A stretch of DNA of 64,000 nucleotides from Candidatus Bathyarchaeota archaeon (GCA_963733095.1 CAVTBV010000012.1:288001-352000), one strand, 5' to 3'; positions 6,887-23,046 are shown, counted from the first letter of the stretch. Translations and numbers: made by a program. The notes: a model not told the origin generated them from the letters alone.

Positions 6887-6887
6887 A

Positions 6888-7676
6888 ATGAGCGTTTTTG
6901 ACGGCTTAAGGTTCAGAAAAGTCTCCTCGCCCATCCACAACTTAGACCCTAGAATAAAATTCGTCTATGTTATAGCCATCTTTGTGGCGGCGATCATTTT
7001 TTCTCAGATTATTCCATTGCTGATTTTGTTCTTCATGCAGGTTCCCTTTGTTCTGTTGGCACGTGTTCAACGGCAGTGGCTGCGGTCGTTGCGTGGAGCG
7101 GCGTTTTTGGCGTTCTTTATTTTCGTGGTTAACGTGGGAACGACCTTTTTCACTTCAGGCTACCACATATATGCTTTCAACATTGAAAATGCGGCGGCGA
7201 TGACTCTGAGGTTTGTCGTGCTTGTCGAATCGTTCTCGGTTTTCTTCTTAACCACTTCACCCGACCACTTAGGCTTAGCCCTAGAGGAATCACGCGTTCC
7301 ATACGAATTCGCCTTCGCATTCACAACCGCCGTCAGATTTGTCCCCGTTCTCGCCGAGGAAGCCCAAACAATCATGGATGCCCAAAAAGCCCGAGGATTG
7401 GAACTAGAAAAGGGCGGCTTGCTCAAACGAATCAGAAACTATGTGCCCGTGCTTATCCCGTTGATTGTCAGCGCCATACGGAGAAGCCTTGAGTTGGCTG
7501 AGGCAATGGAATCCCGGGCTTGGGGTGCAACAAAAAAACGCACCAACCTCTATTTGCTCAAACTACACAGAGGAGACTACGGTTTAGTTGCAATTACCGT
7601 CGGAATATTAATTGTTTCCATTTACATCCGCTTGTTCTTTTTTAGTTTCATTCCAACCATAGCAAGTTTGCTTTAG
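6888..7676 (+). CDS. ecfT: ECF transporter transmembrane T component
   Basis: LDPRIK N-terminal motif, AQKARG and AMESRA coupling-helix motifs, several TM helices. Confidence 0.9.
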   Translation: MSVFDGLRFRKVSSPIHNLDPRIKFVYVIAIFVAAIIFSQIIPLLILFFMQVPFVLLARVQRQWLRSLRGAAFLAFFIFVVNVGTTFFTSGYHIYAFNIENAAAMTLRFVVLVESFSVFFLTTSPDHLGLALEESRVPYEFAFAFTTAVRFVPVLAEEAQTIMDAQKARGLELEKGGLLKRIRNYVPVLIPLIVSAIRRSLELAEAMESRAWGATKKRTNLYLLKLHRGDYGLVAITVGILIVSIYIRLFFFSFIPTIASLL

Positions 7677-7758: not shown

Positions 7759-8640
7759 ATGTCTGAGCACACCCGTTTTGGTCCAGCAGGCGTTCCGCCA
7801 ATGTTTAGGTTAATGGGCGCAACCACATCTGACGTCCCCAAGCTCTTGCATGAAGAGGGACTGGATGCTTTTGAATACCAAGCCTCAAGGTGGGGACCAA
7901 AACCACAAATAAACCCCGATGACGCCAGAAAACTGGGTGAAGAAGCCAGAAAAAACGACGTTAAACTCAGCATGCATGGTTCCTATTTTGTTAATTTGTC
8001 CGGCAAGAAAGAGGTTGTGGAAGCAAGCAAACGTCGCTTAATAGCCTGCGCAACCGCCGCGGATTGGATGGGCGCGTACGTCGTGGTTTTCCACACAGGC
8101 TTCTATGGAAAATTCGAAAAAGACTACGCATTCAAAACCTGTCTAACTGCCCTAAAAGAACTTAGAACAGAAATGAAAAGGTTGGACTTAAAGGTGAAGC
8201 TTGGACCAGAAACGATGGGTAGAAAATTCCAAGTCGGCACCCTAGAAGAAATCCTCAAAATAAATCAAGAAGTTGAAGGCACACAACTCGTCATTGATTG
8301 GGGACATCTCCATGCCCTGCACTTGGGAACACTAAAAAAAGTGGAAGATTTCCGGGCAATAGCCGAGAAAGTTGAGCAAGAACTCGGAACTGATGCCCTC
8401 AAAAACATGCATTGTCATTTCTCAAAAATCGAGTTCAGCAGTCAAGGGGAAAAGCGTCACCACACTCTCGACGAAGAAAGGTATGGACCAGAATTCCACA
8501 TGCTAGCCGAGGTGATCGTGGATTTTGGGTTGCATCCGACGATGATTTGTGAGTCACCAATCCTTGATGTTGATGCAAGAAAGATGAAAGCTACACTCAA
8601 CGAGGTTTTGGAAAGCAAGCAACAGAACCCTCAATCATAG
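7759..8640 (+). CDS. nfo: Archaeal endonuclease IV (AP endonuclease 2 family TIM barrel)
   Basis: RFGPAG, HGSYFVNL, VFHTG, GPETMG, IDWGHLHA, HCHFS and ICESP metal-binding motifs. Confidence 0.85.
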   Translation: MSEHTRFGPAGVPPMFRLMGATTSDVPKLLHEEGLDAFEYQASRWGPKPQINPDDARKLGEEARKNDVKLSMHGSYFVNLSGKKEVVEASKRRLIACATAADWMGAYVVVFHTGFYGKFEKDYAFKTCLTALKELRTEMKRLDLKVKLGPETMGRKFQVGTLEEILKINQEVEGTQLVIDWGHLHALHLGTLKKVEDFRAIAEKVEQELGTDALKNMHCHFSKIEFSSQGEKRHHTLDEERYGPEFHMLAEVIVDFGLHPTMICESPILDVDARKMKATLNEVLESKQQNPQS

Positions 8641-8742: not shown

Positions 8743-9351
8743 TCATTTTTGAGATAACAATCTTTCCGCAAGCTGGAGTTCTGACACCGTGTTTATGTTC
8801 ACGGCCAATTCCTCGTTGTTCATGAGGAATATGTCTTGGTCGAGCCATTCGTCACCATACCGTTTGTGTCCGTCGATAACGTTGATCCCTACTGGAACGA
8901 CGTCTTTGTTGTCGGCTTTGAATGAGTATTCGATACACATACCCAACTTTGCTTTGGTTTCAAGCGGAACCGCAACGGTTAGGGCAGGTTTGCCGCATTG
9001 CTCGTAACGTTCCACGACGGCATCTATCATTTTGCCCGTCACCAAGGGTAAGTCAGCTGCGACCGCTAAGAAAACGCCTAGCTTGAGCGTTTGAACGGCG
9101 TAGCCCATGTCGGAAACATAGTCTTTGCCCGGAGTTTCAAGATATTTGACCCTGAGATGTTTCATGAGTTGGGTTGTATTGGGTGTACAACTGGATGTTG
9201 CAACGATTACTGAATCGATTTTTTTGGCTTGCTTGAGCGCAGCGAGCACGTATTCAATGACGTGTTTGCCGCAAACCTTTATGAGCGGTTTTTCCTCGGC
9301 GATTTTCATGCGAGTTCCTTTGCCGCCAGCCATAACAAGCGCAACTATCAT
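8743..9351 (-). CDS. cobY: Adenosylcobinamide-phosphate guanylyltransferase CobY (copy 1)
   Basis: MAGGKGTRM...EKPL NTP-transferase motif, PVGIN, NINT. Start placed at the ATG at 9351, overlapping the cobS stop. Confidence 0.85.
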   Translation of the reverse strand: MIVALVMAGGKGTRMKIAEEKPLIKVCGKHVIEYVLAALKQAKKIDSVIVATSSCTPNTTQLMKHLRVKYLETPGKDYVSDMGYAVQTLKLGVFLAVAADLPLVTGKMIDAVVERYEQCGKPALTVAVPLETKAKLGMCIEYSFKADNKDVVPVGINVIDGHKRYGDEWLDQDIFLMNNEELAVNINTVSELQLAERLLSQK

Positions 9352-10124
9352 CAAATCACCGCCAACAAAACAATAACACAAACCATCCGCGTCAACTCGT
9401 TAGTAGCACCAAAAACGTCCCCTGTAACTCCGTTGAAGTGCTTGTGGGCAACCCCAACCATAACTAAACCAGTTATTACTGCTGATAGAATGGTAAAGAC
9501 ACCTGCCCAACCCAGCAGTGGAAAAGCAATCAACACTGAAAGCACCAACGCTAAAACCAAACGCATTTTACCTATACTTCCATGCATAGCTTCAAGAAAC
9601 GATGAGTTCATGCCTTGATGGACGGATTTGCCTGCCCAAGCAGCTACCACCATTGACAGCTTTGCACACAACTCAACAACAATTAAAGCGGGAAAAATCA
9701 GGGGAACCGCGAAATTCAAAATAAATATGTGCCTTCCGAGTTCAGCGAAAGCAAACGCCGTAATTAGGTAAGTCATTACGGATAAGCCGATGGCTCCTGC
9801 ACCCGTTAACTGGTCATGCATGACCTCAATTTTATGTTCAGATGATCCATGCACCATGACGCCGTCACCGAAATCCAAAAGCCCGTCTGTATGATGTAGC
9901 CCAGTCATTAACAATAACAGAGCCAAAGCCAAAGCGCCGACCACAAGACCTGGCAAAAACTCAAGAACCACCCAGCTGAACGAACCTGCCAACAAACCGA
10001 GAAAAGCGCCGAGTAATGGGAAAGCCCACATGTTTCGGGCGCAGTCAGTAAGCAGGTCTTTGTCCATAGCAACTGGAAAAACGGTTAAGAAGGATAGGAG
10101 GTTCTTTAGTTCTTTAACAGCCAA
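9351..10124 (-). CDS. cobS: Cobamide synthase CobS (copy 1, canonical)
   Basis: GLHHTDGLLDFGDG, VMHD..G and GVTGDVFGATNE motifs; polytopic membrane protein. Confidence 0.92.
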   Translation of the reverse strand: MAVKELKNLLSFLTVFPVAMDKDLLTDCARNMWAFPLLGAFLGLLAGSFSWVVLEFLPGLVVGALALALLLLMTGLHHTDGLLDFGDGVMVHGSSEHKIEVMHDQLTGAGAIGLSVMTYLITAFAFAELGRHIFILNFAVPLIFPALIVVELCAKLSMVVAAWAGKSVHQGMNSSFLEAMHGSIGKMRLVLALVLSVLIAFPLLGWAGVFTILSAVITGLVMVGVAHKHFNGVTGDVFGATNELTRMVCVIVLLAVI

Positions 10125-10131
10125 GCGCGTG

Positions 10132-11220
10132 TCACTTTATGCCCATCAGTAGAGCATAGTTACGCTCTATTTCCTTAAGAAGTATATCCTTGGTGATTGC
10201 GCTGCCTGTCTTGGCCATCGCTGCGATTGATGCACCGCCAGCGCCAACACCTTCCTTGACCAAGCCTGTTTCGTAGATTTGAAGGCCTGGATACTTTGAG
10301 GGACCAAAATCCAAGTCGGCTGCTAAAACTGGCACTTCACAGAACTGTTTTGCGATGCCACAGATGTCTGAGTTCTTGTCTTTTACAACCCACCTTGTGG
10401 TGCCAACAGCTACGTTACAGAGCGATTTGGGAGCCAAAGCGCTAATTATTGCTAAAACCGCGGTCATCTGGGTGCCGCCAGCCATCAGAACAGGTCCCTG
10501 TCTTGCGCCGCCTATGACTAATCCAGCCATCGCCGCCATCATGGGGTCGCCAACACAGGAAACTGCTTTTAGAGGGTTGTTTTTTAGGCTGCCGAATTTT
10601 TCTTTTGCCGCCTTCAAACCTGCCTCAACCACTTCTGCCTTGAGGCTATGGGGGTTTTGGGGCAGGGTGCTGCTGACTTTTCCCTGCGCATCCACACCTA
10701 ACGCTGAGAGAACGCCAAGCGCAGTTGTAGTTCCGCCTGGAATACTCTCGCCGATAACCAAATAATCAGACGCTTTCGCGAGTTGTTCGCCTAAAATCTT
10801 AGCGCGCTCCACGACTTCTTCGACGTTGTCAACTGAGTCGCCGCTTCGGATGTCTCTGCCGGAGCTGCCGCCTAAATCCACATAAGGAATCTGCGGCTTA
10901 ACCTTCACACCTCCATTAACCACCAACACTGGGATGTCACCTAAATGCAACGCCGACATCGTGATTAAGCCAGGTGTCGGAATCCCATCAGGGGTAATTG
11001 GGACACCTGCTATAGATTTGCATTTACCAAGCAAAAGCAGCTCCGCATCTGCAGGAGGCGTAAAATCTGTAAAATCCGGGTTCATCCCGGCGGCAGATAA
11101 ACCGGGGATTTTCGCCGTTTCTGTAGTTGCAATGGTGCAGAGGAATAGGGGTTTTTTGCCTTCGATTTCGTCTAAAAAGGCTTTTGCTTTAAGTTCATTA
11201 TTCGCAATCAGGACATCCAT
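10132..11220 (-). CDS. cobT: Archaeal-type nicotinate-nucleotide:lower-ligand phosphoribosyltransferase CobT
   Basis: TETAKIPGLSAAG, GESIPGGTTTA, GDPMM, AGGTQM and VKEGVGAGG motifs. Confidence 0.9.
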   Translation of the reverse strand: MDVLIANNELKAKAFLDEIEGKKPLFLCTIATTETAKIPGLSAAGMNPDFTDFTPPADAELLLLGKCKSIAGVPITPDGIPTPGLITMSALHLGDIPVLVVNGGVKVKPQIPYVDLGGSSGRDIRSGDSVDNVEEVVERAKILGEQLAKASDYLVIGESIPGGTTTALGVLSALGVDAQGKVSSTLPQNPHSLKAEVVEAGLKAAKEKFGSLKNNPLKAVSCVGDPMMAAMAGLVIGGARQGPVLMAGGTQMTAVLAIISALAPKSLCNVAVGTTRWVVKDKNSDICGIAKQFCEVPVLAADLDFGPSKYPGLQIYETGLVKEGVGAGGASIAAMAKTGSAITKDILLKEIERNYALLMGIK

Positions 11221-11231
11221 ATAGTTTCCCT

Positions 11232-11903
11232 TTACTTGGGCACAACTTTGAATTCCTTAATCTCTAAGTACCCAAAGCCGCCGTCAAGCTTAAGTCTCTG
11301 TGATTCAACAATTTCAACCTTTTTCTTGAAACCTGGCCCATCAGTTATGACTGTATGATATTCACCGCCTTCTCCGCAAGCATCTACATTGCCAAGTTTT
11401 AGGATATCGTCGTAGAATTGCCTATCGAGTACGCGTCCAAGCCAATCCACGCCAAGCAGTTCCAATTTGGTGCGGACTACAGTGGCTTTGAAGCCTGTTT
11501 TGAGGTAGTCGAGATAGATTTGTTTTGTGTCGCCCATCCACAGTGGCTTGACGGGTGTTAAGCCAACTTCTTTGCAGATGCGTCCAAGCCAACCTTCTTC
11601 ATGCCCAGCGACTTCATAGATGTCGCCAGTAACTAAGCCTTCCGCGCCTCGGGACTTGCACTCATAGAGCACGGCTTTGAAGTCGTTCTCGTAGGTCTGG
11701 GGGGATGTGGGTTTTTTTATCAGGGGAATCCCGATAGCTTCAGCTTGTGCGTCTAGGATGCCTGAGGGTATCATATGGAAGTTTGATTTGGTTTCGCTCA
11801 TCATCATAGTTAACAGGTTGATTACTTGGTGGCCTTGCTGGGTGGCCAGGTAGAATGCGTAGGCGCTGTCTTTGCCCCCACTCCATGAAGCAATAACTTT
11901 CAT
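11232..11903 (-). CDS. DUF71/Dph6-like ATP pyrophosphatase (diphthine-ammonia ligase family), copy 1
   Basis: SWSGGKDS PP-loop, TGDI, PLW and DACGEGGEYHT; first gene of the cobT-cobS-cobY operon. Confidence 0.85.
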   Translation of the reverse strand: MKVIASWSGGKDSAYAFYLATQQGHQVINLLTMMMSETKSNFHMIPSGILDAQAEAIGIPLIKKPTSPQTYENDFKAVLYECKSRGAEGLVTGDIYEVAGHEEGWLGRICKEVGLTPVKPLWMGDTKQIYLDYLKTGFKATVVRTKLELLGVDWLGRVLDRQFYDDILKLGNVDACGEGGEYHTVITDGPGFKKKVEIVESQRLKLDGGFGYLEIKEFKVVPK

Positions 11904-11913
11904 CTTAAATTTT

Positions 11914-12006
11914 CCTCCTATGTATCTTCACCGTTATCCGTTATTTGGGTTACGGGTTCAGGTGAAAGATGAAACTACATATTTATTGTAAACACACTTG
12001 TATAAA
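11914..12006 (-). promoter_or_regulatory. Promoter (TATA) and structured 5' leader with Shine-Dalgarno for the DUF71-cobT-cobS-cobY operon
   Basis: TTTATA on the minus strand at 12006-12001, a hairpin at 11919-11981, and GGAGG at 11918-11914. Confidence 0.5.
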
Positions 12007-12196
12007 TAACTGAGCTTTTACTATGCAAACAGCCACTTAACTTCCTTTTCGATAAAAGTTTGATTGGAATAACCCAAGTTTTATTGATGTTCAGCAAATC
12101 ACCATGCAGAGCATTTGGTAGTCAATGCACCCTTTTCCATGAGAGCAAGTGTAAACCACTCCGCACAACCCTTAAAACAGACTGCGTCTCTAAAAA

Positions 12197-12694
12197 ATGA
12201 GGTTAAAACCCATGACAAACCAAACCTCACCAATGTTAACTTACCTCGAAGGCAAAGGCATCACCCTAAAAAGCCTCATCGACAGCGCCCTCGAAATGTA
12301 TGTTCCCCACCCGGGCGTAGAAAACTTTGAAAAAGCAACACAAATGCTCAAAGAAGAATTCCTCGATATACTCACAGACGTCAACGTTAACACGCTCATT
12401 GTTGCCGCTTTCCATGCTCAGGAAGAAGCTGAGAACGGTCGGATTCCAGGCTTAACGAAGGAGAGGTTTTTGGGCAGACCCGGATTGGTTGCAGATGAAC
12501 TCATCGGCATAGCCATAGCAACATACATCGGAGGTTCCAAGGGTATGTTTGAGTTTGTACGGTTTGATCAAACAAAACCAGGCATCCTAAAGGAGTTGCC
12601 GCCGCTCACTAATGATGCAATCGGCGCGTTGGTAGCGGGTGCATCCTCGAATGTCTATACCAGAGCCCTGAAAAGTGCAGGCCTTCCACCGTAG
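12197..12694 (+). CDS. cobZ: Alpha-ribazole phosphatase CobZ (PgpA-like, archaeal)
   Basis: DVNV..LI.AA, LVADELIG.AIA.YIGG.KG.FEFVRFD..KPGIL..L motifs; divergent from the cob operon. The true start may be slightly downstream. Confidence 0.8.
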   Translation: MRLKPMTNQTSPMLTYLEGKGITLKSLIDSALEMYVPHPGVENFEKATQMLKEEFLDILTDVNVNTLIVAAFHAQEEAENGRIPGLTKERFLGRPGLVADELIGIAIATYIGGSKGMFEFVRFDQTKPGILKELPPLTNDAIGALVAGASSNVYTRALKSAGLPP

Positions 12695-12805
12695 AGACCA
12701 TTTTTTTCTCTTGACCGTGCAAGTCCCAGTTTCAGCAGCGCTTGCAATGGGTTTACCATAAGATTATAATACTATGTCGATTGAGGAACTACTTGTTGGG
12801 CTTCC

Positions 12806-13963
12806 ATGGTTCAAACTCAGCTCTGCATTGTTACACACACTTTTCTGCCGCATGTAGGCGGGATAGAGAAGGTGGTTAATGAACAAAGCAAGCGGCTGCG
12901 AACAAAAAACTTTGAGCCCACGGTAGTTACTAACAGGATAGGCACTCCCAAAAACTACAAGGTTGACGGGGTACCCGTCGAATGCTATGAATCCCTCAAC
13001 ACTGGCTTTAGGCTGGGAATTCCATATTCGATTCCAACTATTGCAAGTTTTCCAACTTTTATTAAAACAGTAAACAAGAGCAAAATAATCCACGCACACG
13101 GACACCCCTACCTAACCTCGCTCATCGCGGGTAAACTTGCCAAAATTTACGCTAAACCCTTGGTTTTAACCCAGCATAACACCTTCATCGAGTACAACAA
13201 CATGTTTGACACAGTCGAAAACTTGAACGACTTCACCGTTGGAAAACAAAACCTAAAAAACGCCGACAAAATAATCGCCATCAGCAACGCTACAAAAGAG
13301 TATGTTCTAAGGCTAGGTGCAAAACCAAAGAAGATAAGAGTTGTCTACAACGGTGTTGATTTGGTTAGGTTTCGACCCATAGCGGGAAAACGTGAGGAAA
13401 TGCAAAAAAAACTCGGAATCCCCAAAAACGCCATCGTCGTGTTGACTGTGCGACGGTTGGTTTACAAGAACGGTATTGACACATTAATCGACAGTGCGAA
13501 CATTGTGATTAAAAAGAATCGGCGGATTGTGTTTTTGGCTGTTGGGAAAGGTCCTGATTCGGACGATGTCAAGTTGAGGATACAGCAGTTGGGGATTGAC
13601 GGAAACTTCAAGCTCGCAGGCTTTGTCAGTGATGAGGATTTGCCGTTCTACTACAACGCGGCGGACTTGTTTGTGTTGCCTTCTAAGTCGGGTGAAGGGT
13701 TGCCTTTGGTCGCGATGGAAGCCATGGCATGTGGGCTACCGGTTGTCGCTACAGATGTGGGGGGAATACGAGAAGTGTTGATAAATGATTACGGAAAACT
13801 GGTGCCGCCCAACCAGCCAGAGCTGCTTGCAAGGGCAATTTTGGATTTTGCAGCGCTTGATTTTTCTTCACGCAAAAAAGACCTCCGTGCTATGATGGAA
13901 GAAAAGTTTAGTTGGGACACAAATGTTGCGAGACTTGTGGAAATATACGAAGAACTTATTTAA
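12806..13963 (+). CDS. Glycosyltransferase family 4
   Basis: PHVGGIE, VYNGVD and EGLPLVAMEAMACGLPVV (EX7E). Confidence 0.92.
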   Translation: MVQTQLCIVTHTFLPHVGGIEKVVNEQSKRLRTKNFEPTVVTNRIGTPKNYKVDGVPVECYESLNTGFRLGIPYSIPTIASFPTFIKTVNKSKIIHAHGHPYLTSLIAGKLAKIYAKPLVLTQHNTFIEYNNMFDTVENLNDFTVGKQNLKNADKIIAISNATKEYVLRLGAKPKKIRVVYNGVDLVRFRPIAGKREEMQKKLGIPKNAIVVLTVRRLVYKNGIDTLIDSANIVIKKNRRIVFLAVGKGPDSDDVKLRIQQLGIDGNFKLAGFVSDEDLPFYYNAADLFVLPSKSGEGLPLVAMEAMACGLPVVATDVGGIREVLINDYGKLVPPNQPELLARAILDFAALDFSSRKKDLRAMMEEKFSWDTNVARLVEIYEELI

Positions 13964-14007
13964 CCATGTAACGGAAACATATTAGCCTTTGAAATGGAAG
14001 TTAACTG

Positions 14008-14742
14008 ATGACGTCAAAAGTTGAAATGGTTTCGGTGGTAATTCCAACACTCAATGAAGCAGGAAACATTCAGGAAGCAATAGAAACCATCCAAAGCGAC
14101 CTTACCTATCCTAAAGAAATCATAGTTGTGGACGGTAATTCTACGGACGGGACCAAAGAAATCGTTCAGTCCCTGGGCTATTGCAGGCTTATCGTGGAGC
14201 CTCGCCGCGGGTACGGTTTAGCTTTGATGACTGGGATGAAGAACGCTAAGGGTAACATCATCATAATGGTGGATGGAGACGGCACATACGAGTTTCGTCA
14301 CATGAATCGCTTAATAGATGCCATGCTTGAAAAAAACGCTGACATGGTTTTAGCCACCCGCATGTACGACCCCAACAAAGCCATGGGACTCATGAACTTT
14401 ATCGGCAACAAAGTAATCACAACCTTCTACGATTTCTTCTTTAGCCAATTCCTCAGCGACACCCAATCAGGTTTCCGAGCTATATCCCATGAAGCCATCA
14501 ACAAGGTGGAACTCAAAGCATACGACATGGCTTACGCAACAGAGATGCTTATCCAATTCGCCAAGGAAGGCTACAGCATGATTGAGGTTCCCACAACCTA
14601 CAAAACCCGTAAGTATGGGAAACCTAAACTGAGAAGATTTAAGTCTGGAATAGAGATATTTAGCACTATGTTTAGAGGATTTCTGGATGCGGATACGTTT
14701 AGAAAGTGCCAGGAGAATTGGAAGCAAAATCGGGTTAAATGA
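14008..14742 (+). CDS. Glycosyltransferase family 2, DPM1-like (polyprenol-phosphate glycosyltransferase)
   Basis: VVIPTLNE, VVDGNSTDGT, DGDGTY and DTQSGFRA. Confidence 0.9.
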   Translation: MTSKVEMVSVVIPTLNEAGNIQEAIETIQSDLTYPKEIIVVDGNSTDGTKEIVQSLGYCRLIVEPRRGYGLALMTGMKNAKGNIIIMVDGDGTYEFRHMNRLIDAMLEKNADMVLATRMYDPNKAMGLMNFIGNKVITTFYDFFFSQFLSDTQSGFRAISHEAINKVELKAYDMAYATEMLIQFAKEGYSMIEVPTTYKTRKYGKPKLRRFKSGIEIFSTMFRGFLDADTFRKCQENWKQNRVK

Positions 14743-15208
14743 AGAAAAAGGCTATGCAGTCGCCATTTTTCTTGCTTTAATCATCGTTTCCGCGACAGTC
14801 TTAGGCTACTATTTTGTGCTAAGGCCACAGGCTGCACCCTACAATACCATCTATCTGTTGGACGCTGACAAAAAAGCTGTGGATTATCCGCAAACTTTAG
14901 TAGCGAACCAAAACAGTACTTTTAGCGTATATGTCGATGTAGAAAACCACATGACTACAACCGCAAGCTATCAAGTGCAAGTAAAAATTGCACAGAACCT
15001 CTCCACTTTCCCAGTGGATAATCAACCCATTCAAATCATAGAAACAGGCAATGTTAACAACAACGGAAAACCAATAGAAAAAACAGCAACTATCACAATA
15101 AACACGCTTGGAAGCTACTCTGTGGTCTTTGAACTCTGGCAACATAAAGACGGCACCCTCGAGTTCACTCAAGACTACTGCGTTCTAAACATTCAAGTGA
15201 TAAGCTAA
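14687..15208 (+). CDS. DUF1616-like membrane-anchored protein
   Basis: Single TM helix then a beta-rich domain with IYLL...DYP, VENH and VVFELW. Start uncertain because of the 56-nt overlap with the GT2. Confidence 0.65.
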   Translation: MRIRLESARRIGSKIGLNEEKGYAVAIFLALIIVSATVLGYYFVLRPQAAPYNTIYLLDADKKAVDYPQTLVANQNSTFSVYVDVENHMTTTASYQVQVKIAQNLSTFPVDNQPIQIIETGNVNNNGKPIEKTATITINTLGSYSVVFELWQHKDGTLEFTQDYCVLNIQVIS

Positions 15209-15295
15209 TTTTGCTTGCCTAATCTTTAAAACCCTAATAAGGTAGCTGTAGTTTTTTCGGAGATATGGGCATGTTAAGTCTTTTTCATAAAAGAA

Positions 15296-16765
15296 TTAGG
15301 ATGGCTTTTTGTGTCTTTGCGCATAAGCTTTCTCGATGGCTACTCGGTGGACGTTGTTATAGGCGCAGAACGGAATAATCTTGAGGTCTGGCGTAATATA
15401 ATGAACGACGCATCGGCGGACGCGGTTAACGTCGAAATTATAGGAATCCATGAATGCCATGCAACCCAACAAGAAGATTCTTCTTCGGATTTTGCCCAGC
15501 GACTGGTAAGAAGGCGCAAGATGCATACGCATAATTGACTTCATCAGAGTTGGCATGCCAACTTCTTTGGTAACCAGTAACATATCCATTGAAAGCATTG
15601 AAGCCATAAACAGCGATGAGAGAAGAGACATTTTGCCCTTAGATTCAGCTGTTTCGGCGGTTTTGCGGATGCTGTTGAAGAAGCGGTCAAAGTTTACGAA
15701 GCGGTTGATTGGGAACATTTTGCCGCTCTTGGAAACGTACACCCAGTTGACGATTCCGCATTGGGGACTGCAGGAGAAGAGGGGCCAGGGTTTCTGCATA
15801 AACTTACGCATGATTTTAATCGGCGAAGTCATCACGGACATGGGATATAGGTCAGTGGCTTTTACTTCACCGTTTGTTTGTTTTTCCACATCTTCGGCAA
15901 AGCTCCATTCGCGGAAGTTTTCTCGGAATGGGTTCTCGGTTGCTCTGCCCGTGAAGGCGATGGGTTGGAAGATTAAGCCGCGAACGATGTCAGTGTTTTT
16001 GGCGGCGAAATGTATCATGTCGCCGACTTCTGTGTCGTTGAGGCTTTTCATGAGGGTATTGACAAGGATGATTTCCATGTCGTATTTGCGGCAAACATCG
16101 ATTGCTTTGAGTTTCATATCTAAGAGTTCTCGTCCTCTAACTTTGCGGTTGAACTCTTCATGGAAACTGTCGAAGGACAAGTAAACGATGTTTAAGCCGC
16201 TGTCTTTGAGCCTCTTTGCTAAACCTGGTGTGTCAACGAGATGTGTCCCATTGGTTGCCAGAATAGTCATGAACTTTAATTGATGAGCAGCCGCGATGAT
16301 TTCTGGCATGTCCTCGCGTTCAAGGGGTTCGCCGCCCGAGAAAAGAATTGCAGGAGGTTTGGGGTTTGCTTTGGCTGCGAACTCTAGCATTTTTATGAGG
16401 GCTTCTTTGGTGGGTTCATAGTCTGCTTCTTGATTTGGAAAAGTGCTAAAGCAAACGGCACATTTGAAGTTACAGCGCTTAGTTACGTCGATTACGCCGA
16501 TGACTGTGCCAGATGCGTGTTTGTCGCAGGTTTCACATTTGTAGGGGCACCCTTCGGGGTTTTTGGGTGCAGTTAAGTCGCCAAGGTATTGGAACTGGTC
16601 GTACTTTTGCATGTGGTTGTAGATTGGTACGCTTTGCCAGTGGGTAGCATGGAATTCGCCGTGTTCAGGGCACTGCTTGCTTATTTGGATTTTACCGTTG
16701 GACTGGGCTAGTTGGGCGTCGATTTTCTTTTGGCATTCAGGGCAGATGCTTTTGGTTTCGCTCAT
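15296..16765 (-). CDS. tes: Tetraether lipid synthase Tes (MJ0619/GDGT-MAS family radical SAM)
   Basis: N-terminal CPEC...CPEHG, auxiliary CPYKCETCDKH, radical SAM CNFKCAVC, SGGEP, FSCSPQCG, and C-terminal CMAFMDSYNFDVNRVRRCVVHY...IIPFCAYN. Start at 16765 overlaps the UbiA stop (ATGA). Confidence 0.82.
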   Translation of the reverse strand: MSETKSICPECQKKIDAQLAQSNGKIQISKQCPEHGEFHATHWQSVPIYNHMQKYDQFQYLGDLTAPKNPEGCPYKCETCDKHASGTVIGVIDVTKRCNFKCAVCFSTFPNQEADYEPTKEALIKMLEFAAKANPKPPAILFSGGEPLEREDMPEIIAAAHQLKFMTILATNGTHLVDTPGLAKRLKDSGLNIVYLSFDSFHEEFNRKVRGRELLDMKLKAIDVCRKYDMEIILVNTLMKSLNDTEVGDMIHFAAKNTDIVRGLIFQPIAFTGRATENPFRENFREWSFAEDVEKQTNGEVKATDLYPMSVMTSPIKIMRKFMQKPWPLFSCSPQCGIVNWVYVSKSGKMFPINRFVNFDRFFNSIRKTAETAESKGKMSLLSSLFMASMLSMDMLLVTKEVGMPTLMKSIMRMHLAPSYQSLGKIRRRIFLLGCMAFMDSYNFDVNRVRRCVVHYITPDLKIIPFCAYNNVHRVAIEKAYAQRHKKPS

Positions 16766-17673
16766 ATTAACCATCCAAGGACAGCCTCAACGATGAGTGC
16801 AAGCGGCAACAGCATCATTGACATCGTTACCAAGCGTTCATACTTGCGTATATCTGCTATGGTTGAACTTGAAACGAATAACCGTATGGACGAGTAAATT
16901 AGCAGTACGCTCCAGAGTAGAATTAGCGGCAAGTAATAAAGTGTGAAATGCCCGGTGAATAAGGGAAGAGCAGGCAATGGCGCAAGCAATCCTGTGAGAA
17001 AGAAGAATATGCCACCAATTTTCGCTGCGCTAATCGCGCCGATTTTTTGGGGCAGTGTTGGGTAACCGACTTTTGAGTCGCCCTCCATGCTTAAAACGTC
17101 GCGGAGAACGTTGCCTCCTATGGTTCCGAGCGCGATTGGGTAGAGACTCAGGGAAACTAGAGTTATTGTGCCTGAAACGGTTGCTTGACCAAATATGAAA
17201 GCTGTACCAGTCAAGATGCCCATCAACAGGTTAGCTGCAAACCCTGACTTGCGTTTCACCATGTAAGAGTAAACCAAAAGCAGAAAGGAGTCCACAGCGA
17301 TTATGGCAAAACTCAACCAATTTATGAAAGCTGCCAAAAGCAAGCCTGATGCAAAGAGTGCACTGGTAACTGCAATGACTTGCTTCAATGTGAGGGCGCC
17401 TGATGGAATAGGTCGTTTGGGTTTGATGATTGCATCGCTTTCGCGGTCAAAATAATCATTTATGGCAAACCCTGCGGACGCGATTAACGCCATAGAAAAG
17501 AAGGTCAATAACTCCACAATCCCAAAGCCCAGACTGCCTATTGTGGTTTGTATGCTTGAAAAGTTGCCTTTTAGGATGGCGAATGCCGTTAGCACTGCCA
17601 AACCGCCGGTCATTAGCCAGTAGGGAAGCCGCAGCAGAGCAACTAAGGCTCTAGCTGACCTGGCAGAACTCAT
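16762..17673 (-). CDS. UbiA prenyltransferase, digeranylgeranylglyceryl-phosphate synthase-like
   Basis: INDYFDRESDAIIKPKRPIPSG first Asp-rich motif. The second motif is altered (NVLRDVLSMEGD). Many TM helices. Confidence 0.82.
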   Translation of the reverse strand: MSSARSARALVALLRLPYWLMTGGLAVLTAFAILKGNFSSIQTTIGSLGFGIVELLTFFSMALIASAGFAINDYFDRESDAIIKPKRPIPSGALTLKQVIAVTSALFASGLLLAAFINWLSFAIIAVDSFLLLVYSYMVKRKSGFAANLLMGILTGTAFIFGQATVSGTITLVSLSLYPIALGTIGGNVLRDVLSMEGDSKVGYPTLPQKIGAISAAKIGGIFFFLTGLLAPLPALPLFTGHFTLYYLPLILLWSVLLIYSSIRLFVSSSTIADIRKYERLVTMSMMLLPLALIVEAVLGWLI

Positions 17674-18614
17674 TGCTTAATTTTCCTGTCAGCGATGACT
17701 TCTTTGATGCTGTCTTCTAGGGTGACTTTGGGGGTCCAGCCGAGTTCTTTTTTGGCTTTGGATATGTCAAACCAAATTTTTGTTACGTCTCCCTGCCATG
17801 AGACTCCTGTGGTTGTCACCACGGTTTTGTCTTGGAGATTAAGGATGGTGAGTATCAATTTGGCTAATTCGATTATAGAAGTTGTTTTGCCAAGCCCCAA
17901 GTTGTAGACTTCGCTGTTAACATAATCCTCTGAACCCACCTTAACTAATGCCGCAACCACATCGGACACATGCACAAAATCGCGGCATTGCTGACCGGTA
18001 CCGATGATTTCAAGTTTGTTAGGGTTATTTGCTAGTTTATCAAGAAAGTCGTGGATCACGCCATGACATCGCAGTCCGTAAACGTTGGCAAACCGAGTAA
18101 TCACGATATCTAAGCCGTATTGTTCACGGTACATTTGGCAGTATTCTTCGCCCACCACTTTGGATAAGCCGTAACATGAGAAAGGGTGAAAACCATATGA
18201 TTCGGGAGTTGGAAACATGGTTGGATTTCCGTAAACTGCTGCGCTTGAGGCGAACACTACTTTTGCGTCATCTTTGCGGGCTTTTTCCAAAACACACAGC
18301 GTTCCCTTAGCGTTGGTCTCAAAATCAACAAGAGGGTTCTCCATAGAGTAACCGACGACAACTTGCGCAGCCAAATGATAGATTAAATCGCTCTTTGGTA
18401 GACTGCAGAGGGTTTTGAGGTCCAGTATGTCGCCCTTTACGAAGTTGGCTTTGTGCACATCCTCAACATTTTTCATCAGGCCGCTTGAGAGGTTATCATA
18501 AATCGTTAAATCATCAGTTAACTGAGACAGTTTACTGCAAAGGTGATAGCCTATAAAGCCTGCTCCACCAGTAACGAACACTTTTTTCCCTTTCAAATCA
18601 GCCATCCAAATCAC
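17670..18614 (-). CDS. NAD-dependent NDP-sugar epimerase/dehydratase (extended SDR)
   Basis: TGGAGFIG, HLAA, SSAAVYG, YGLSK, NVYG and RDFVHV. Confidence 0.92.
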   Translation of the reverse strand: MIWMADLKGKKVFVTGGAGFIGYHLCSKLSQLTDDLTIYDNLSSGLMKNVEDVHKANFVKGDILDLKTLCSLPKSDLIYHLAAQVVVGYSMENPLVDFETNAKGTLCVLEKARKDDAKVVFASSAAVYGNPTMFPTPESYGFHPFSCYGLSKVVGEEYCQMYREQYGLDIVITRFANVYGLRCHGVIHDFLDKLANNPNKLEIIGTGQQCRDFVHVSDVVAALVKVGSEDYVNSEVYNLGLGKTTSIIELAKLILTILNLQDKTVVTTTGVSWQGDVTKIWFDISKAKKELGWTPKVTLEDSIKEVIADRKIKQ

Positions 18615-18653
18615 GACAAAGCCTATATTCCCTATTGGTAAGGTTGTAGGTAT

Positions 18654-19487
18654 ATGTCGCCTGTGAAAACTATAAAAACTTTTAGGGATTTGCTATCTTT
18701 CCTCACCATCATTCCAGTTGGAGGAAAAGAAGATTTCATTTTCACGACGGCAGAGAACGTTTGGCTTTTTCCGTTGCTGGGCGGATTTATTGGTTTACTT
18801 GCTGGATTGTATTTTGTGGGTTCAAGCTTAATTGTGGGTTTTCTTTTAGATTTAATTCGAAGGGGGGTTGCTTTGCCAGTTGGGGTTTTCGCAACTTTGC
18901 TTCCTGCAGCCATGACGATAGCTTTCCTCAGCGTTATAACGGGACTTCAGCATTTCGACGGATTAATCGATTTAGGCAATGCCGTTGGCTTGCGGAATGT
19001 GCATGACCGCAAGATGGTAGCACACGCTTGGACAGTTACCTATTCCGGAGCTGTTTTAGCTTTGGTTGTCGAGTTTACTGCTTTCATAGGGCTATCTCTC
19101 GTTTTTAATCCATGGCTTGCCTTTGCTGCAGTATTGGCAGCTGAAGTGGCAGCCAAATTGTCGATGGTTACGATTGTTTGGGTGGGCAAACCCAGCCACA
19201 AGGGGCTTGGCTCGATTTTCTTGGCAAAAGCCAAAAGGAACCTCAACGCAGTCGCCTACTTGATTGCGGTTCTGGTTGTTTTCCCTGTTTTCACTCTTAT
19301 CGGTAATCCCCTTTTAGGGTTGGCGGGAGTGGGCATAGTTTTGGTCAGCATTCCGGTGGCGTTTGTTATGAGAAAAGTGTCGAATAACGTTTTTGGGGGA
19401 GTTTCGGGAGACATGATTGGAGCAACCAACGAAGTTGCTAGAGCAGTGACGCTGGTTTTGTTTGCGGTGGTGCTGTTGCTGACATGA
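18654..19487 (+). CDS. cobS: CobS-family membrane protein (copy 2, divergent)
   Basis: SFLTIIP, GLQHFDGLIDLGNA and GVSGDMIGATNE; some conserved Asp residues are lost relative to copy 1. Confidence 0.75.
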   Translation: MSPVKTIKTFRDLLSFLTIIPVGGKEDFIFTTAENVWLFPLLGGFIGLLAGLYFVGSSLIVGFLLDLIRRGVALPVGVFATLLPAAMTIAFLSVITGLQHFDGLIDLGNAVGLRNVHDRKMVAHAWTVTYSGAVLALVVEFTAFIGLSLVFNPWLAFAAVLAAEVAAKLSMVTIVWVGKPSHKGLGSIFLAKAKRNLNAVAYLIAVLVVFPVFTLIGNPLLGLAGVGIVLVSIPVAFVMRKVSNNVFGGVSGDMIGATNEVARAVTLVLFAVVLLLT

Positions 19488-20107
19488 AGGTTCCCGCAGT
19501 GATTATGGCTGGCGGCAAAGGCTCACGAATGGGTTTGCCTGCTGAGAAGCCGCTGCTGCCGTTTTTGGGTAAGCCGCTGATTGACTGGGTGACAGAAGCA
19601 ATCTTGGAAGCAAAAAAGGTTTCCGAGTTCTATGTCATAACCAGCTCTAACACGCCGAACACAGAAAAGCACTGCCAAAACATAGGCTGGAAAATCCTGC
19701 ACACAGACGCAAAAGGCTACCACAACGACCTAAAACAAGCCGTTTCGATGGCAAATTTGACTGGACCAATCCTAACTATACCCTCAGATATTCCAGCCAT
19801 AACCGGAAAAGTCCTCGACAAAATCATCGCCTCATTCGAGGTTTGTGGAAAAGATTTTTTGGCAGTTTTCGTTCCCCTCAAATCGCGGCAGGACTTGGGG
19901 CTGTCGATTTCCTCCACCGACGAATACAAGGGCGTTTGGTACGCGGTTTCAGGAATCAACATCATAAACGGCACAAAAATCCTGTGTGAAGGCAAAATCG
20001 AAACCAGTGCAATCATTACCGAGGAAACTGAGGTTCTGCTAAACATCAACACAACCAAAGACTTGGAAATAGCAGAGAAAATTCTGAGTGAAAAAAGAAA
20101 GATTTAG
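19484..20107 (+). CDS. cobY: CobY-family nucleotidyltransferase (copy 2)
   Basis: MAGGKGSRM...EKPL, SGIN and NINT; ATGA overlap with cobS copy 2. Confidence 0.78.
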   Translation: MKVPAVIMAGGKGSRMGLPAEKPLLPFLGKPLIDWVTEAILEAKKVSEFYVITSSNTPNTEKHCQNIGWKILHTDAKGYHNDLKQAVSMANLTGPILTIPSDIPAITGKVLDKIIASFEVCGKDFLAVFVPLKSRQDLGLSISSTDEYKGVWYAVSGINIINGTKILCEGKIETSAIITEETEVLLNINTTKDLEIAEKILSEKRKI

Positions 20108-20109
20108 TG

Positions 20110-21445
20110 TTACCCATAAGAAGTTAGTTGCAGGTCCGCCGCTACGAATACTCTGTTATCTGACTCGACTGGTGCAAGAACGATAGTGGTCGAAATGTTG
20201 ATTCTTCACTGTATCTCCGCTTGAGACACCAAAAACCCAAAGCGTATTGTTCTCAGTCAAAAAAACTGATTCTTTATTTACAGTTAATCCTGCTTGGCTT
20301 TGGGTTGAAGTAACGTTGTCCTGGATTTGACGTCTCCAGACAACTTCGCAGGTAGCTAAATCTAGACTCACAATTGTGGCTTTGAATTGGCCTTGTTGGA
20401 TAACTCCAAAGCTCCAATATATGCGCTGGTTTTCTGGGTCAACCTGAATGGGATATGTTGTAAGGTCGGAGCTGGTTTGGTTGAGGACGCTTTGGGTATC
20501 AACCTTGGTCATACAGGATACTTTGCCGCTTATCAGGCTAAGCCCATAAAAGTTGCCGTCTGAGGCACCGAAAAGCAAGACACCTTGGCAGATGGTCGGG
20601 GAATATACAGTAGCACCGATGTCTTTGCTCCAAAGACTTTCGCCTGAGGTTTGGTTGAGGCTCAGGATTTGGGTACCACTTTCTAGGATGACTTGTCCTT
20701 GGTAGTTGCCAACAACACTTGGAATGCCGTTTGAAATGTTAATTGCACTTTTACTTTGCCAAAAAATAGTTCCGTTATCTGTGATTAATTTGAAAATATC
20801 GGGGCTCGACAGGTTGCCGCCTAAAGCATAAACTGAGTTGCCTTCAAACGGGTCGCCTCCCAACACACGTCCACTTGCCTGCCAAGTGTTCAAATCAGTT
20901 ATGTTGCCAAAACTTGTCGTTTCCTCAAAAGCTTCACCTTGCCAGAGGAGCTCGCCACTGGAGGCGTTGTGGGCAGTAACCTCTCGACCAGGACCATCCT
21001 CTATGATGGAATATACAATGTCGTTCTGAACAACAATGTCGTCAGGAGCCCTTTTTGAGTACAGCGAATTGCCCAGCCACCCCATAAAATTCCATTGAAA
21101 TTGACCCGTTTCCTCATCTAAACAGCTAACCGAAGCTAACTCGGAACCGCCATAAACTCTGCCGTTAGACACCGTGAGTCCTGAATCGAAATAACCATCT
21201 ACACTGCCATTCCATACGGGAACGCCAGTTTGGGAGTCATAGCAATTTACGTTACCTGAAATATCCATAGTGAAGACATTTCCGTCGTCAACCGCTAATG
21301 AAGTAGCGAAGTTTTGGATGTTGCGTTGCCAAGCAACCCCAGACCCTTCAGAGTTTAGGATACTGTTTTTGTAAACTATCAACAAGGAAACTGCTATAAC
21401 TGCAATTAAGCCTACGACCACAATCAGCAGGGTGTGTCTTTTCAA
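20110..21445 (-). CDS. Secreted PQQ-like beta-propeller protein with an apparent frameshift near the 3' end
   Basis: Signal anchor plus repeated G...W blades. The ORF track stops at 20156, but a shifted frame at about 20182 continues VLAPVESDNRVFVAADLQLTSYG* to 20110. Confidence 0.72.
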
Positions 21446-21618
21446 TTTCTTCCCTTAAAGCGGCTGTAAGATAACCGATCATATATGCTTTTGCAAGTTT
21501 AGCTAATTCTTTCAATATCTTGCGTTTTTGCGGCAGTTCAAGTCTGGATTGCGATTAGAGAAATATTTAACATACTCACGCATCCAATTAACTACCAAGA
21601 CCACTTGGAGTAATCTGC

Positions 21619-23046
21619 ATGAGCATCCTCAGCCGCGACAGCTTTTGGAACGCAGTCATCTCTCTGCCTATGACTAAGAAGATGCTCCAGATATCGCTCA
21701 AAAAATGTAGCAGATGCGGCAGAACGGTGCTTGAGGCAGCGCTGGACGATTACGCGGGAAAAACAGACCTTCGATGCAGTAAGTGCAGTGGACTGTACTC
21801 GCAGGTTATCGGTTTCTGGATAGAGTTTCTACGTAGGGGACTTGGTTTTAAGCGGGTTAAGGTCGAGAAGCTCTTATCTGACCGTTACGCTAGAACAGCC
21901 GTAGTGAATTTGGCGCGTTCGTTTGCGTATTTCGGCATCAAAAAACCCATGTCGCTCTCAGCGCCGTTTCTGGTGGTTTGGGATTTCACTCACAAATGCA
22001 ACCTATCCTGCAAACACTGTTACAGCAACAGTGGCCCAGTCAACGAGGAAGAATTAACCACAGAACAAGCCCTCGCAGTCGTAGACCAAATGGCTGAAGT
22101 CGGTGTGACTGCATTGGCGTTCAGCGGAGGCGAACCCTTAACCCGAAAAGACTTCTTCCAAGTTGCACGCTACGCCTCTGACCGCGGGCTCTACGTGTCT
22201 GTTGCTTCAAACGGCACGCTGCTATCAAAAGAGAACGTTCAGAAGCTCAAAGAAGCCAAAGTCAACTACATAGATGTGAGCATCGACGGTGCATCTGCTA
22301 AGACACACGACGACTTCCGAGGCGTCCCCGGCACCTTCGATAAGGCGGTAGCGGGTCTCAAAAACTGTGTCGAAGCAGACCTGTGCGTTTGCATCGCGAC
22401 AACAGTTGGTAAAAACAACATGACGGAGCTGCCCGCCATCATAGATTTAGCTGAAGAAATACATGCTGAAAGGTTTACTTACTTCAATTTTATCCCGACC
22501 GGACGCGGCAAAGCCCACATTGACCAAGACCTGTCCCCAAAGGAGAGGGAGGAAGTGATGCGTTACCTTTTGAACCGTATGTCGGCTGGATGCAAAACCA
22601 CCATCCTTGCAACAGCGCCGCAGCTAGCCCGTGTAGCTCTCCAGTGCCAAGGCATTTCGGGCACAGGTGAAGTAACCCTGTCCATGGCACATATGCAAAC
22701 AGTCAAAGTAACCAAAAAAGCCGTGCCATTGGGCGACTTTATCGGCGGATGCGGCGCAGGCAGACTCTACTGTTCACTATCTCCTCAGGGCGACGTTCAC
22801 CCATGCGTTTTCCTGCCCGTAAAAGTTGGCAACCTGAAAACTGGAAAGTTCCAGGACATTTGGTTAAACGCTTCGCTCTTCAATGCTTTTCGAAACCGGG
22901 CTAACCTGAAGGGGTCATGTGGAAAATGCGATTACAAGTTCATCTGCGGCGGCTGCAGGGCACGTTCAGCAGCATACCATAATGGTGATATGCTCAACGG
23001 AGACCCAGGCTGCCTTCAAGGAGTGAAAGGTGCAAAAAATGCCTAA
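21619..23046 (+). CDS. Radical SAM/SPASM protein (NirJ/PqqE-like) with N-terminal CxxC...CxxC
   Basis: CNLSCKHC, SGGEP, SIDG, GCGAG...PC and CGKC...CGGCRAR SPASM cysteines. Confidence 0.9.
   Translation: MSILSRDSFWNAVISLPMTKKMLQISLKKCSRCGRTVLEAALDDYAGKTDLRCSKCSGLYSQVIGFWIEFLRRGLGFKRVKVEKLLSDRYARTAVVNLARSFAYFGIKKPMSLSAPFLVVWDFTHKCNLSCKHCYSNSGPVNEEELTTEQALAVVDQMAEVGVTALAFSGGEPLTRKDFFQVARYASDRGLYVSVASNGTLLSKENVQKLKEAKVNYIDVSIDGASAKTHDDFRGVPGTFDKAVAGLKNCVEADLCVCIATTVGKNNMTELPAIIDLAEEIHAERFTYFNFIPTGRGKAHIDQDLSPKEREEVMRYLLNRMSAGCKTTILATAPQLARVALQCQGISGTGEVTLSMAHMQTVKVTKKAVPLGDFIGGCGAGRLYCSLSPQGDVHPCVFLPVKVGNLKTGKFQDIWLNASLFNAFRNRANLKGSCGKCDYKFICGGCRARSAAYHNGDMLNGDPGCLQGVKGAKNA

Follow-up and report, generated by a model that had tools for sequence, protein, structure and literature searches.

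A coupled epimerase-UbiA-Tes gene trio as the probable core of an accessory ether-lipid pathway in two Bathyarchaeia lineages

Tetraether synthases of the Tes/GDGT-MAS type (GDGT, glycerol dialkyl glycerol tetraether) are described from Methanocaldococcus jannaschii (MJ0619; structures 7tol and 7tom) and Methanosarcina acetivorans (MA_1486), and a further M. acetivorans protein, MA_1114, exemplifies a second Tes-family member that is not redundant, as on expression it gave no GDGT and only a trace of macrocyclic archaeol (Zeng 2022, excerpt). Here, we analyzed a 64,000-nt stretch of Candidatus Bathyarchaeota archaeon DNA (GCA_963733095.1 CAVTBV010000012.1:288001-352000; hereafter, the window), in which genes for a GalE-type extended short-chain dehydrogenase/epimerase (SDR2), a UbiA-family membrane prenyltransferase paralog (UbiA2), and a divergent tetraether-synthase-family radical S-adenosylmethionine (SAM) enzyme (Tes2) are joined by stop/start overlaps. 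Tes2 resembles the described enzymes in full-length homology, four metal sites, a labile Met, and fold, but it is a second copy that forms a clade of its own in two Bathyarchaeia lineages and lies in an operon with UbiA and SDR genes, a context that the same excerpt of Zeng 2022 does not report, in UbiA, SDR, or CobS neighbors, for MA_1114. The best sequence and fold match of UbiA2 is the digeranylgeranylglyceryl phosphate (DGGGP) synthase of M. jannaschii, MjDGGGPS (6m31 and 7bpu), with which it shares equivalents of N62, D66, D70, Y125, K130, D180, and D187; unlike MjDGGGPS, it has a serine at the D183 equivalent, sits on a long stem, and accompanies an ordinary DGGGPS encoded elsewhere in the genome. 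Chlorophyll synthase (ChlG/BchG) has the same D-x-x-S-x-x-G-D third motif as UbiA2 (NDFKSVEGD in the 9sau chain), but this match is distant (E 1e-11), and UbiA2 scores below the genome's ordinary DGGGPS on ChlG models.

We consider it somewhat probable, at roughly 55%, that SDR2, UbiA2, and Tes2 are central to an accessory ether-lipid pathway that is limited to certain lineages, would operate beside the housekeeping lipid genes, would have been neofunctionalized, and would make a membrane-spanning ether lipid bearing a special head group. A dedicated lipid branch had been proposed in a first-pass annotation of the window made from sequence alone, and it is the best reading of the locus because canonical copies of the enzymes are encoded elsewhere in the genome, because the window copies occupy separate positions in trees, and because the trio is conserved as a unit within a restricted set of lineages.

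The three open reading frames (ORFs) were recovered exactly where they had first been placed, and both of the ATGA overlaps claimed to join them can be read in the sequence. The end of SDR2 (...AAG CAA TGA) overlaps the start of UbiA2 (ATG AGT TCT) at 17673-17670, and the end of UbiA2 (...TTA ATA TGA) overlaps the start of Tes2 (ATG AGC GAA) at 16765-16762. The likely start of Tes2 is thus the ATG at 16765, with an alternative in-frame ATG 9 nt upstream at 16774, and SDR2 likely begins at the ATG at 18605 (MADLKGKK...), with a GTG at 18614 giving the longest ORF. A scan of species-representative genomes with UbiA2 returned 327 relatives, and we inspected the neighbors of the best 80 of these 327 loci. 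Of 78 loci at which the SDR2-to-UbiA2 junction could be scored, 53 had a 4-nt overlap, and at 15 others the two genes overlapped by 1 nt or were 2 nt apart; the UbiA2-to-Tes2 junction was a 4-nt overlap at 56 of 75 loci and lay between -14 and +2 nt at 70 of 75. Junctions outside these ranges came from fragmentary matches, and the two loci missing Tes2 or SDR2 were contig ends. Because the junctions are kept across related loci, the stop/start overlaps do not reflect chance. The divergent arrangement of SDR2 and a CobS paralog (CobS2) was retained at 77 of the 80 loci, and the intervening 48 bp, judged from their sequence, are a possible shared archaeal promoter region. A scan of positions 12000-21600 for bacterial-type promoters and terminators, which is ill-suited to archaea, gave 10 and 7 hits, respectively, compared with 12.6 and 11.5 in shuffled sequence.

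Additional copies of both lipid enzymes are present in the window genome (2.84 Mb, 95% complete), where the first-pass annotation had advised looking for a second, canonical DGGGPS and Tes. Tes1, on contig 1, scores 668 bits against the NCBIfam model NF045702 and is 37% identical to Tes2. Among five UbiA genes, the contig 3 copy (DGGGPS1) is the most DGGGPS-like, at 235 bits, and is 30% identical to UbiA2. The genome encodes a single GGGPS and a single CarS. In trees, neither the Tes nor the UbiA copy from the window clusters with its canonical counterpart from the same genome, in line with the separate placement that had been anticipated for a dedicated branch.

The module is confined to two lineages, the window's own family (f1) and a sister genus (g18) belonging to a second family of the same order. 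In a Tes tree of 112 rows (quick LG+G4 inference, SH-aLRT support only), the Tes2 proteins of both lineages and a 45%-identical sister cluster formed one clade with support of 100, placed at the base of the Tes-proper group and away from Bathyarchaeia Tes1. Identity between the two lineages was 69% for Tes1 versus 45% for Tes2. Among 1.84 billion representative proteins, only the one sister cluster was found (45% identity, 470 bits), and the next match fell to 34% and 320 bits.

Tes2 contains a radical-SAM domain and an HMPTM/Tes zinc ribbon, aligns with NF045702 over residues 7-486 of 492 at 465.1 bits, just above the cut-off of 450, and is 36% identical to GDGT-MAS in 7tol (E 8.6e-113). In a 28-sequence alignment, the ligands of each metal site were invariant or at least 90% conserved: C8, C11, C32, and H35 of the rubredoxin site (CX2C...CX2H); C73, C77, C80, and H83 of the N-terminal [4Fe4S] site (CX3CX2C plus His); C98, C102, and C105 of the radical-SAM CX3CX2C motif; and C336, C452, C467, and the labile methionine M436 of the C-terminal [4Fe4S] site. 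These ligands match all of the GDGT-MAS metal sites described by Lloyd 2022 (excerpt). An AlphaFold2 model of Tes2 (mean predicted local distance difference test, pLDDT, 86.3) matched 7tol and 7tom in Foldseek with template-modeling (TM) scores of 0.89-0.90, compared with 0.33 for the next match.

UbiA2 matches Pfam PF01040 (2.8e-32), its closest solved protein is 6m31 (E 5.8e-26), and its AlphaFold2 model (pLDDT 90) has 7bpu and 6m31 as best fold matches (TM 0.76 and 0.71). Motif statistics were compiled from 127 UbiA2 sequences and 29 ordinary DGGGPS sequences of the same phylum. Motif 1 (N-D-x-x-D-x-x-x-D) and motif 2 (Y-x4-K) kept their N, D, D, D, Y, and K residues in 127 of 127 UbiA2 proteins; N62 and Y125 of MjDGGGPS sit near the glycerol of geranylgeranylglyceryl phosphate (GGGP) (review, excerpt). 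The intact first motif and altered third motif reported at first pass both appear in the translation, as INDYFDRESD and RDVLSMEGD. That annotation took KDxEDxxGD as the usual form of the third motif, which holds for M. jannaschii DGGGPS (KDFEDMEGD) but not for the 29 ordinary enzymes of the phylum, which read K-G-I-x-D-x-E-G-D. Across the UbiA2 family, the third motif is R-D-x-x-S-x-x-G-D: the D183 equivalent is serine in 127 of 127 sequences, whereas the equivalents of D180 and D187 are retained. In ordinary DGGGPS the pattern differs, as D183 and D187 are kept (x..D..D in 29/29) and D180 is mostly replaced, by glycine in 25 of 29. Position 8 of motif 1 is also distinctive, being serine in 126/127 UbiA2 proteins versus isoleucine or valine in 27/29 ordinary enzymes. 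The third-motif serine is best regarded as a subfamily signature and not as a defect, since chlorophyll synthase has the same D..S..D pattern; for the same reason, the serine taken alone is no sign of an odd lipid backbone. Such a fixed residue pattern suggests that purifying selection has acted on an altered function. In a UbiA tree with MenA-like outgroups and without chlorophyll synthase or other reference families, UbiA2 formed a clade with support of 97/98 and a stem of 1.37 within a poorly supported radiation of the phylum's ordinary DGGGPS.

SDR2 matches PF01370 (Epimerase, 6.5e-52) and PF16363 (GDP_Man_Dehyd, 9e-55), and its translation contains GGAGFIG, ASSAAVYG, and YGLSK. The nearest solved structures are short archaeal or Thermotoga GalE-type UDP-hexose 4-epimerases (3icp, 3ehe, and 4zrm; E 3e-53 to 2e-51), and the score on the GalE model TIGR01179 is 169.6 bits (cut-off 262.3). 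Co-inheritance was counted among 71 genomes of the same Bathyarchaeia order, of which 17 bear the module and 54 do not. SDR2 orthologs adjoin UbiA2 in every module genome, at 284-583 bits, compared with best matches of at most 210 bits in the other 54. The SDR2 matches in three genomes, G133, G038, and G185, each span one in-frame stop (TGA, TAA, and TAA, respectively).

The cluster is larger than the trio, as a GT4 glycosyltransferase, a DUF1616 membrane protein, and a second CobS/CobY pair travel with it (Table 1). A UbiA2 ortholog is encoded by 17 of the order's 71 genomes and by 23 of the 401 that represent the phylum, and all of these genomes belong to genera of family f1 or to genus g18. 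In a survey of 151 Bathyarchaeia genomes, Tes2-type proteins (at least 66% identity) were confined to the window's own family, where 12 of 16 genomes have one; three g18 genomes carry a version with 45-46% identity, and all remaining matches were Tes1-type (33-41%). In 16 of the 17 module genomes, the CobS2-type gene (82-98 bits) shares a contig with the module; in the other, it is a 51-bit fragment at a contig edge. One of the two module genomes lacking GT4 has its module at a contig end. In g18, GT4, DUF1616, SDR2, UbiA2, and Tes2 follow one another on one strand and are succeeded by an unrelated oxidoreductase gene on the opposite strand and then by CobS2-CobY2; these genes are 38-48% identical to those of the window (27-38% for DUF1616). 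Because g18 carries the same genes in a different order and at this degree of identity, the association has outlived both rearrangement and deep divergence. Relatives of the window genome place it in the class Bathyarchaeia; they are labeled Bathy-6 and Ca. Bathycorpusculum and come from soils, peat, and termite guts.

Table 1. Positions, supporting matches, and distribution of features in the window. Loci, best 80 of 327 UbiA2-related loci; module and other genomes, members of the same order.
Feature	Position	Strand	Matches and remarks	Loci (of 80)	Module genomes	Other genomes
Tes2, divergent tetraether-synthase-family radical SAM enzyme	15296..16774	-	492 aa	79		
UbiA2, DGGGPS-derived membrane prenyltransferase paralog	16762..17673	-	303 aa			
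SDR2, GalE-type extended short-chain dehydrogenase/epimerase	17670..18614	-	314 aa; first gene of trio	79	17/17	0/54
SDR2/CobS2 divergent intergenic region	18606..18653	.	48 bp; central TATATT			
CobS2, adenosylcobinamide-GDP ribazoletransferase paralog (membrane phospho-alcohol transferase)	18654..19487	+	PF02654, 92 bits (low-scoring type)	77	17/17	0/54
CobY2, MobA-like nucleoside triphosphate transferase, CobY paralog (adenosylcobinamide-phosphate guanylyltransferase type)	19484..20107	+	PF12804, 1.9e-18	71		
GT4 glycosyltransferase, module-specific	12806..13963	+	PF00534 + PF13439; orthologs 47-76% identical	67	15/17	0/54 (E<=1e-45)
GT2 glycosyltransferase, AglJ/dolichyl-phosphate-hexose-synthase-like	14008..14742	+	PF00535; TIGR04182 AglJ 156, cut-off 325	65		
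DUF1616-domain membrane protein, one N-terminal hydrophobic segment	14687..15208	+	PF07760, 3e-11	68		
Canonical cobamide nucleotide-loop operon, PP-loop-CobT-CobS1-CobY1	8743-11903	-	CobS1 156, cut-off 110; CobT 397, cut-off 240			

CobS2 and CobY2 share with the CobY and CobS enzymes of cobamide synthesis their Pfam families, their motifs (the HxDGxxD and GDxxGATNE regions are kept in the alignment), and the translational overlap of the pair, here 4 nt. They differ from the canonical pair, which lies 9 kb away in the window, in sequence (CobS2 is 36% identical to CobS1, at 9351-10124, and CobY2 is 37% identical to CobY1, at 8743-9381), in the separate clade that CobS2 proteins of both lineages form apart from CobS1 (support 100/100), and in their location beside the lipid trio. 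In the sister lineage, too, CobS2 has a CobY2 beside it, with 42-43% identity. On TIGR00317 (cut-off 110), CobS2 falls just short at 107.7 bits, whereas CobS1 passes at 156.1. CobY2 is below the cut-offs of both TIGR00454 (129.5 bits) and NF045495 (111.5 bits; cut-off 250), but the latter model does not separate it from CobY1, which also fails at 117.3. A Protein Atlas search with CobS2 returned generic CobS clusters only. The canonical PP-loop-CobT-CobS1-CobY1 operon also occurs in module-free relatives. Among the 71 genomes of the order, 49 lack any CobS, whereas all module genomes encode a canonical CobS together with its paralog.

The analysis shows the identity and paralogy of the genes, their tight coupling and joint inheritance, and the retention of catalytic residues and folds; from these observations we infer the following route, including its acceptor, its product, and a lipid role for SDR2, GT4, CobS2, and CobY2. 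UbiA2, as an O-prenyltransferase with an intact Mg/diphosphate site, would transfer an isoprenoid chain onto an acceptor of the glycerol-ether type. The simplest such acceptor would be GGGP itself or a derivative that bears a head group, since the genome has only one GGGPS. After saturation of the chains, Tes2 would join their termini by radical C-C coupling to give a membrane-spanning or macrocyclic lipid. SDR2 would interconvert a nucleoside diphosphate sugar, and GT4, perhaps together with GT2, would glycosylate the polar end. CobY2 and CobS2, recruited from the assembly of the cobamide nucleotide loop, could activate a phospho-compound by nucleotidyl transfer and then pass it to an alcohol to form a phosphodiester. 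The CofC and CofD enzymes of F420 synthesis follow a logic similar to that of CobY and CobS. As a tentative and rather unlikely elaboration of this step, CobS2 and CobY2 may have left cobamide synthesis altogether and may, through guanosine triphosphate (GTP)-type activation and phospho-alcohol transfer, equip the UbiA2/Tes2 ether lipid with a head group of sugar phosphate or polyol phosphate; cobinamide phosphate itself is a less likely candidate for the group attached.

Several points weigh against a predicted accessory pathway of this kind. UbiA2 scores far below the cut-offs of its best NCBIfam models, the DGGGPS models NF009521 (148.8 vs. 296) and NF009523 (147.3 vs. 269); these models are strict for this phylum, however, as the ordinary DGGGPS1 also falls short (235.5 vs. 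269). UbiA2 also lacks the equivalent of D183, the alanine mutant of which had strongly reduced activity in MjDGGGPS (review, excerpt), and its tree placement is weakly supported (86/62) and carries a long-branch warning. A second Tes specific for a head group is not obviously needed, because GDGT-MAS binds head groups non-specifically (Lloyd 2022, excerpt). A special chain length is not supported either, because the number of polyprenyl synthase genes does not follow the presence of the module: we sought a module-linked polyprenyl synthase and found none traveling with it, with one to four copies in both groups of genomes and a single copy in two module genomes. A role in lipids only would not account for the presence of CobS1 in all module genomes, which may reflect a cobamide link or the locus from which the duplication originated. 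Finally, with the module confined to two lineages, the co-occurrence of its genes reflects few independent events.

The conservation of Tes2 bears directly on whether the window enzymes are redundant isozymes that make the same DGGGP and GDGT-0 under other regulation, such as stress or growth phase, with neighboring glycosylation and cobamide genes that have no connection to them. The score of Tes2 exceeds the Tes equivalog cut-off, with all ligands and the fold intact, UbiA2 is as distant from DGGGPS1 as DGGGPS from other classes of the phylum are (29-34%), and second Tes copies are known from 22 of 322 methanogen genomes (Zeng 2022, excerpt), all as redundancy would have it. Yet clade-specific signatures are fixed, stems are long, and six more genes are co-inherited with the enzymes across a rearrangement; moreover, the failure of MA_1114 to make GDGT (Zeng 2022, excerpt) indicates that Tes paralogs need not be redundant. 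We therefore regard simple redundancy as unlikely. More doubtful still is a version of the non-glycerol or sugar-derived backbone raised at first pass, in which SDR2, and with it CobY2 and CobS2, would furnish a sugar or polyol unit for UbiA2 to prenylate before Tes2 joins the tails of the unusual core. Translational coupling of a GalE-type enzyme directly to UbiA2, the changes in motif 3 and at position 8 of motif 1, and the absence of a GGGPS from the module all fit this idea, but the N62 and Y125 equivalents are kept throughout UbiA2 and the best fold match is a DGGGPS, such that a non-glycerol backbone is mildly disfavored. Butanetriol dialkyl glycerol tetraether (BDGT) arises by methylation of glycerol and not by a new prenyltransferase. 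BDGT-type backbones are known from other Bathyarchaeia, but the genus to which BDGT is assigned is another, marine one (review, excerpt).

The Cob genes raise another alternative, in which the module modifies or anchors a corrinoid, either because CobY2 and CobS2 join cobinamide phosphate to a UbiA2/Tes2 lipid alcohol or because UbiA2 esterifies the carboxylate of a tetrapyrrole in the manner of chlorophyll synthase. Prenylation of tetrapyrroles is known for other UbiA enzymes, namely heme O synthase and chlorophyll synthase, and the shared D..S..D pattern of motif 3, the retained CobS2/CobY2 family motifs, and the distribution of canonical CobS1 (17/17 module genomes vs. 5/54 others, with 8-53 kb between the CobS1 and CobS2 loci when both are on one contig) are compatible with such a role. 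On chlorophyll-synthase models, however, UbiA2 reaches only 85.7 bits compared with 110.7 for DGGGPS1, Tes2 appears from its sequence to be a full lipid-tail-coupling enzyme, and the co-occurrence again depends on two lineages. We know of no lipidated corrinoid, and a literature search on CobS, CobY, UbiA, and tetraether found nothing on one; a corrinoid-directed module thus seems very improbable. We assign a similarly slight chance to a cluster with a glycan-carrier or protein-glycosylation function, which would make or modify a polyprenyl-type carrier lipid for surface glycosylation instead of a bulk membrane lipid. GT2 best matches AglJ and dolichyl-phosphate hexose transferases, and a GalE-type SDR, GT4, and the DUF1616 protein would suit a glycosylation cluster, but GT2 is not kept with the module in the sister lineage, Tes-family enzymes are known for diether tail coupling only, and UbiA2 is DGGGPS-like and not of the phosphoribosyltransferase UbiA type (42 bits on that model).

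If CobS2 and CobY2 do attach such head groups to an ether lipid, they would provide a route to head groups independent of cytidine diphosphate (CDP)-archaeol and a new class of membrane-spanning phosphoglycolipid marking Bathy-6-type archaea of soil and peat. We know of no non-cobamide role for a CobS/CobY pair, and action of CobS2 and CobY2 on lipids would, as far as we are aware, be the first. The module also offers a natural test of what sets the substrate choice of Tes and DGGGPS. For most Bathyarchaeia the lipids have yet to be identified, and BDGT, the one lineage marker, belongs to a marine genus (2025 review, excerpt); a lineage-specific second DGGGPS/Tes pair with head-group genes supplies candidate genes for a biomarker lipid of terrestrial Bathyarchaeia. 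In the literature searches and the excerpts read, neither a Tes-UbiA-SDR operon nor CobS/CobY paralogs beside lipid genes were described.

Among the neighboring genes, GT4 has weak and generic NCBIfam matches, several of them to GT4 enzymes for lipid head groups. Membership of GT2 in the module is uncertain, as it neighbors the module in family f1 only and the sister locus has only 29-36% matches. The GT2 and DUF1616 ORFs share 56 nt (14687-14742) in different frames, and DUF1616 may start further downstream. On the other side of the trio, a plus-strand gene at 21619-23046 encodes an AhbD/NirJ-like radical SAM/SPASM protein with a Cys-rich N-terminal extension of ~115 residues, which scores under all curated cut-offs (304.8 vs. 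500); the gene lies within 6 kb of the module at 53 of the 80 related loci and is absent from the 16-kb locus of the sister lineage. Two further, divergently transcribed UbiA genes are located on contig 6 (40526-44323), one of which passes NF009511 (377 vs. 281 bits), and the other scores above the cut-off of no curated family.

Around the canonical cobamide operon, the PP-loop gene at its head (Diphthami_syn_2 family) is kept in genomes G114, G044, G186, and G166 and is partial in G156. A 165-residue ORF at 12197-12694 (plus strand) has no Pfam match at 1e-5 and is conserved next to that operon in G166 and G156 (64% and 45% identity, respectively); it may be a candidate for the operon's missing alpha-ribazole phosphatase. 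The non-module CobS of the sister lineage (G090 contig 1, 424000-438000) is highly divergent, being 35% identical to CobS1 on a branch of 2.65, with no adjoining CobT within the 14 kb inspected. Just upstream of the cobamide operon, positions 5217-7676 (plus strand) encode an energy-coupling factor (ECF)-type transporter module of two ABC ATPases and CbiQ/EcfT, which is followed at 7759-8640 by a xylose-isomerase-like TIM-barrel gene.

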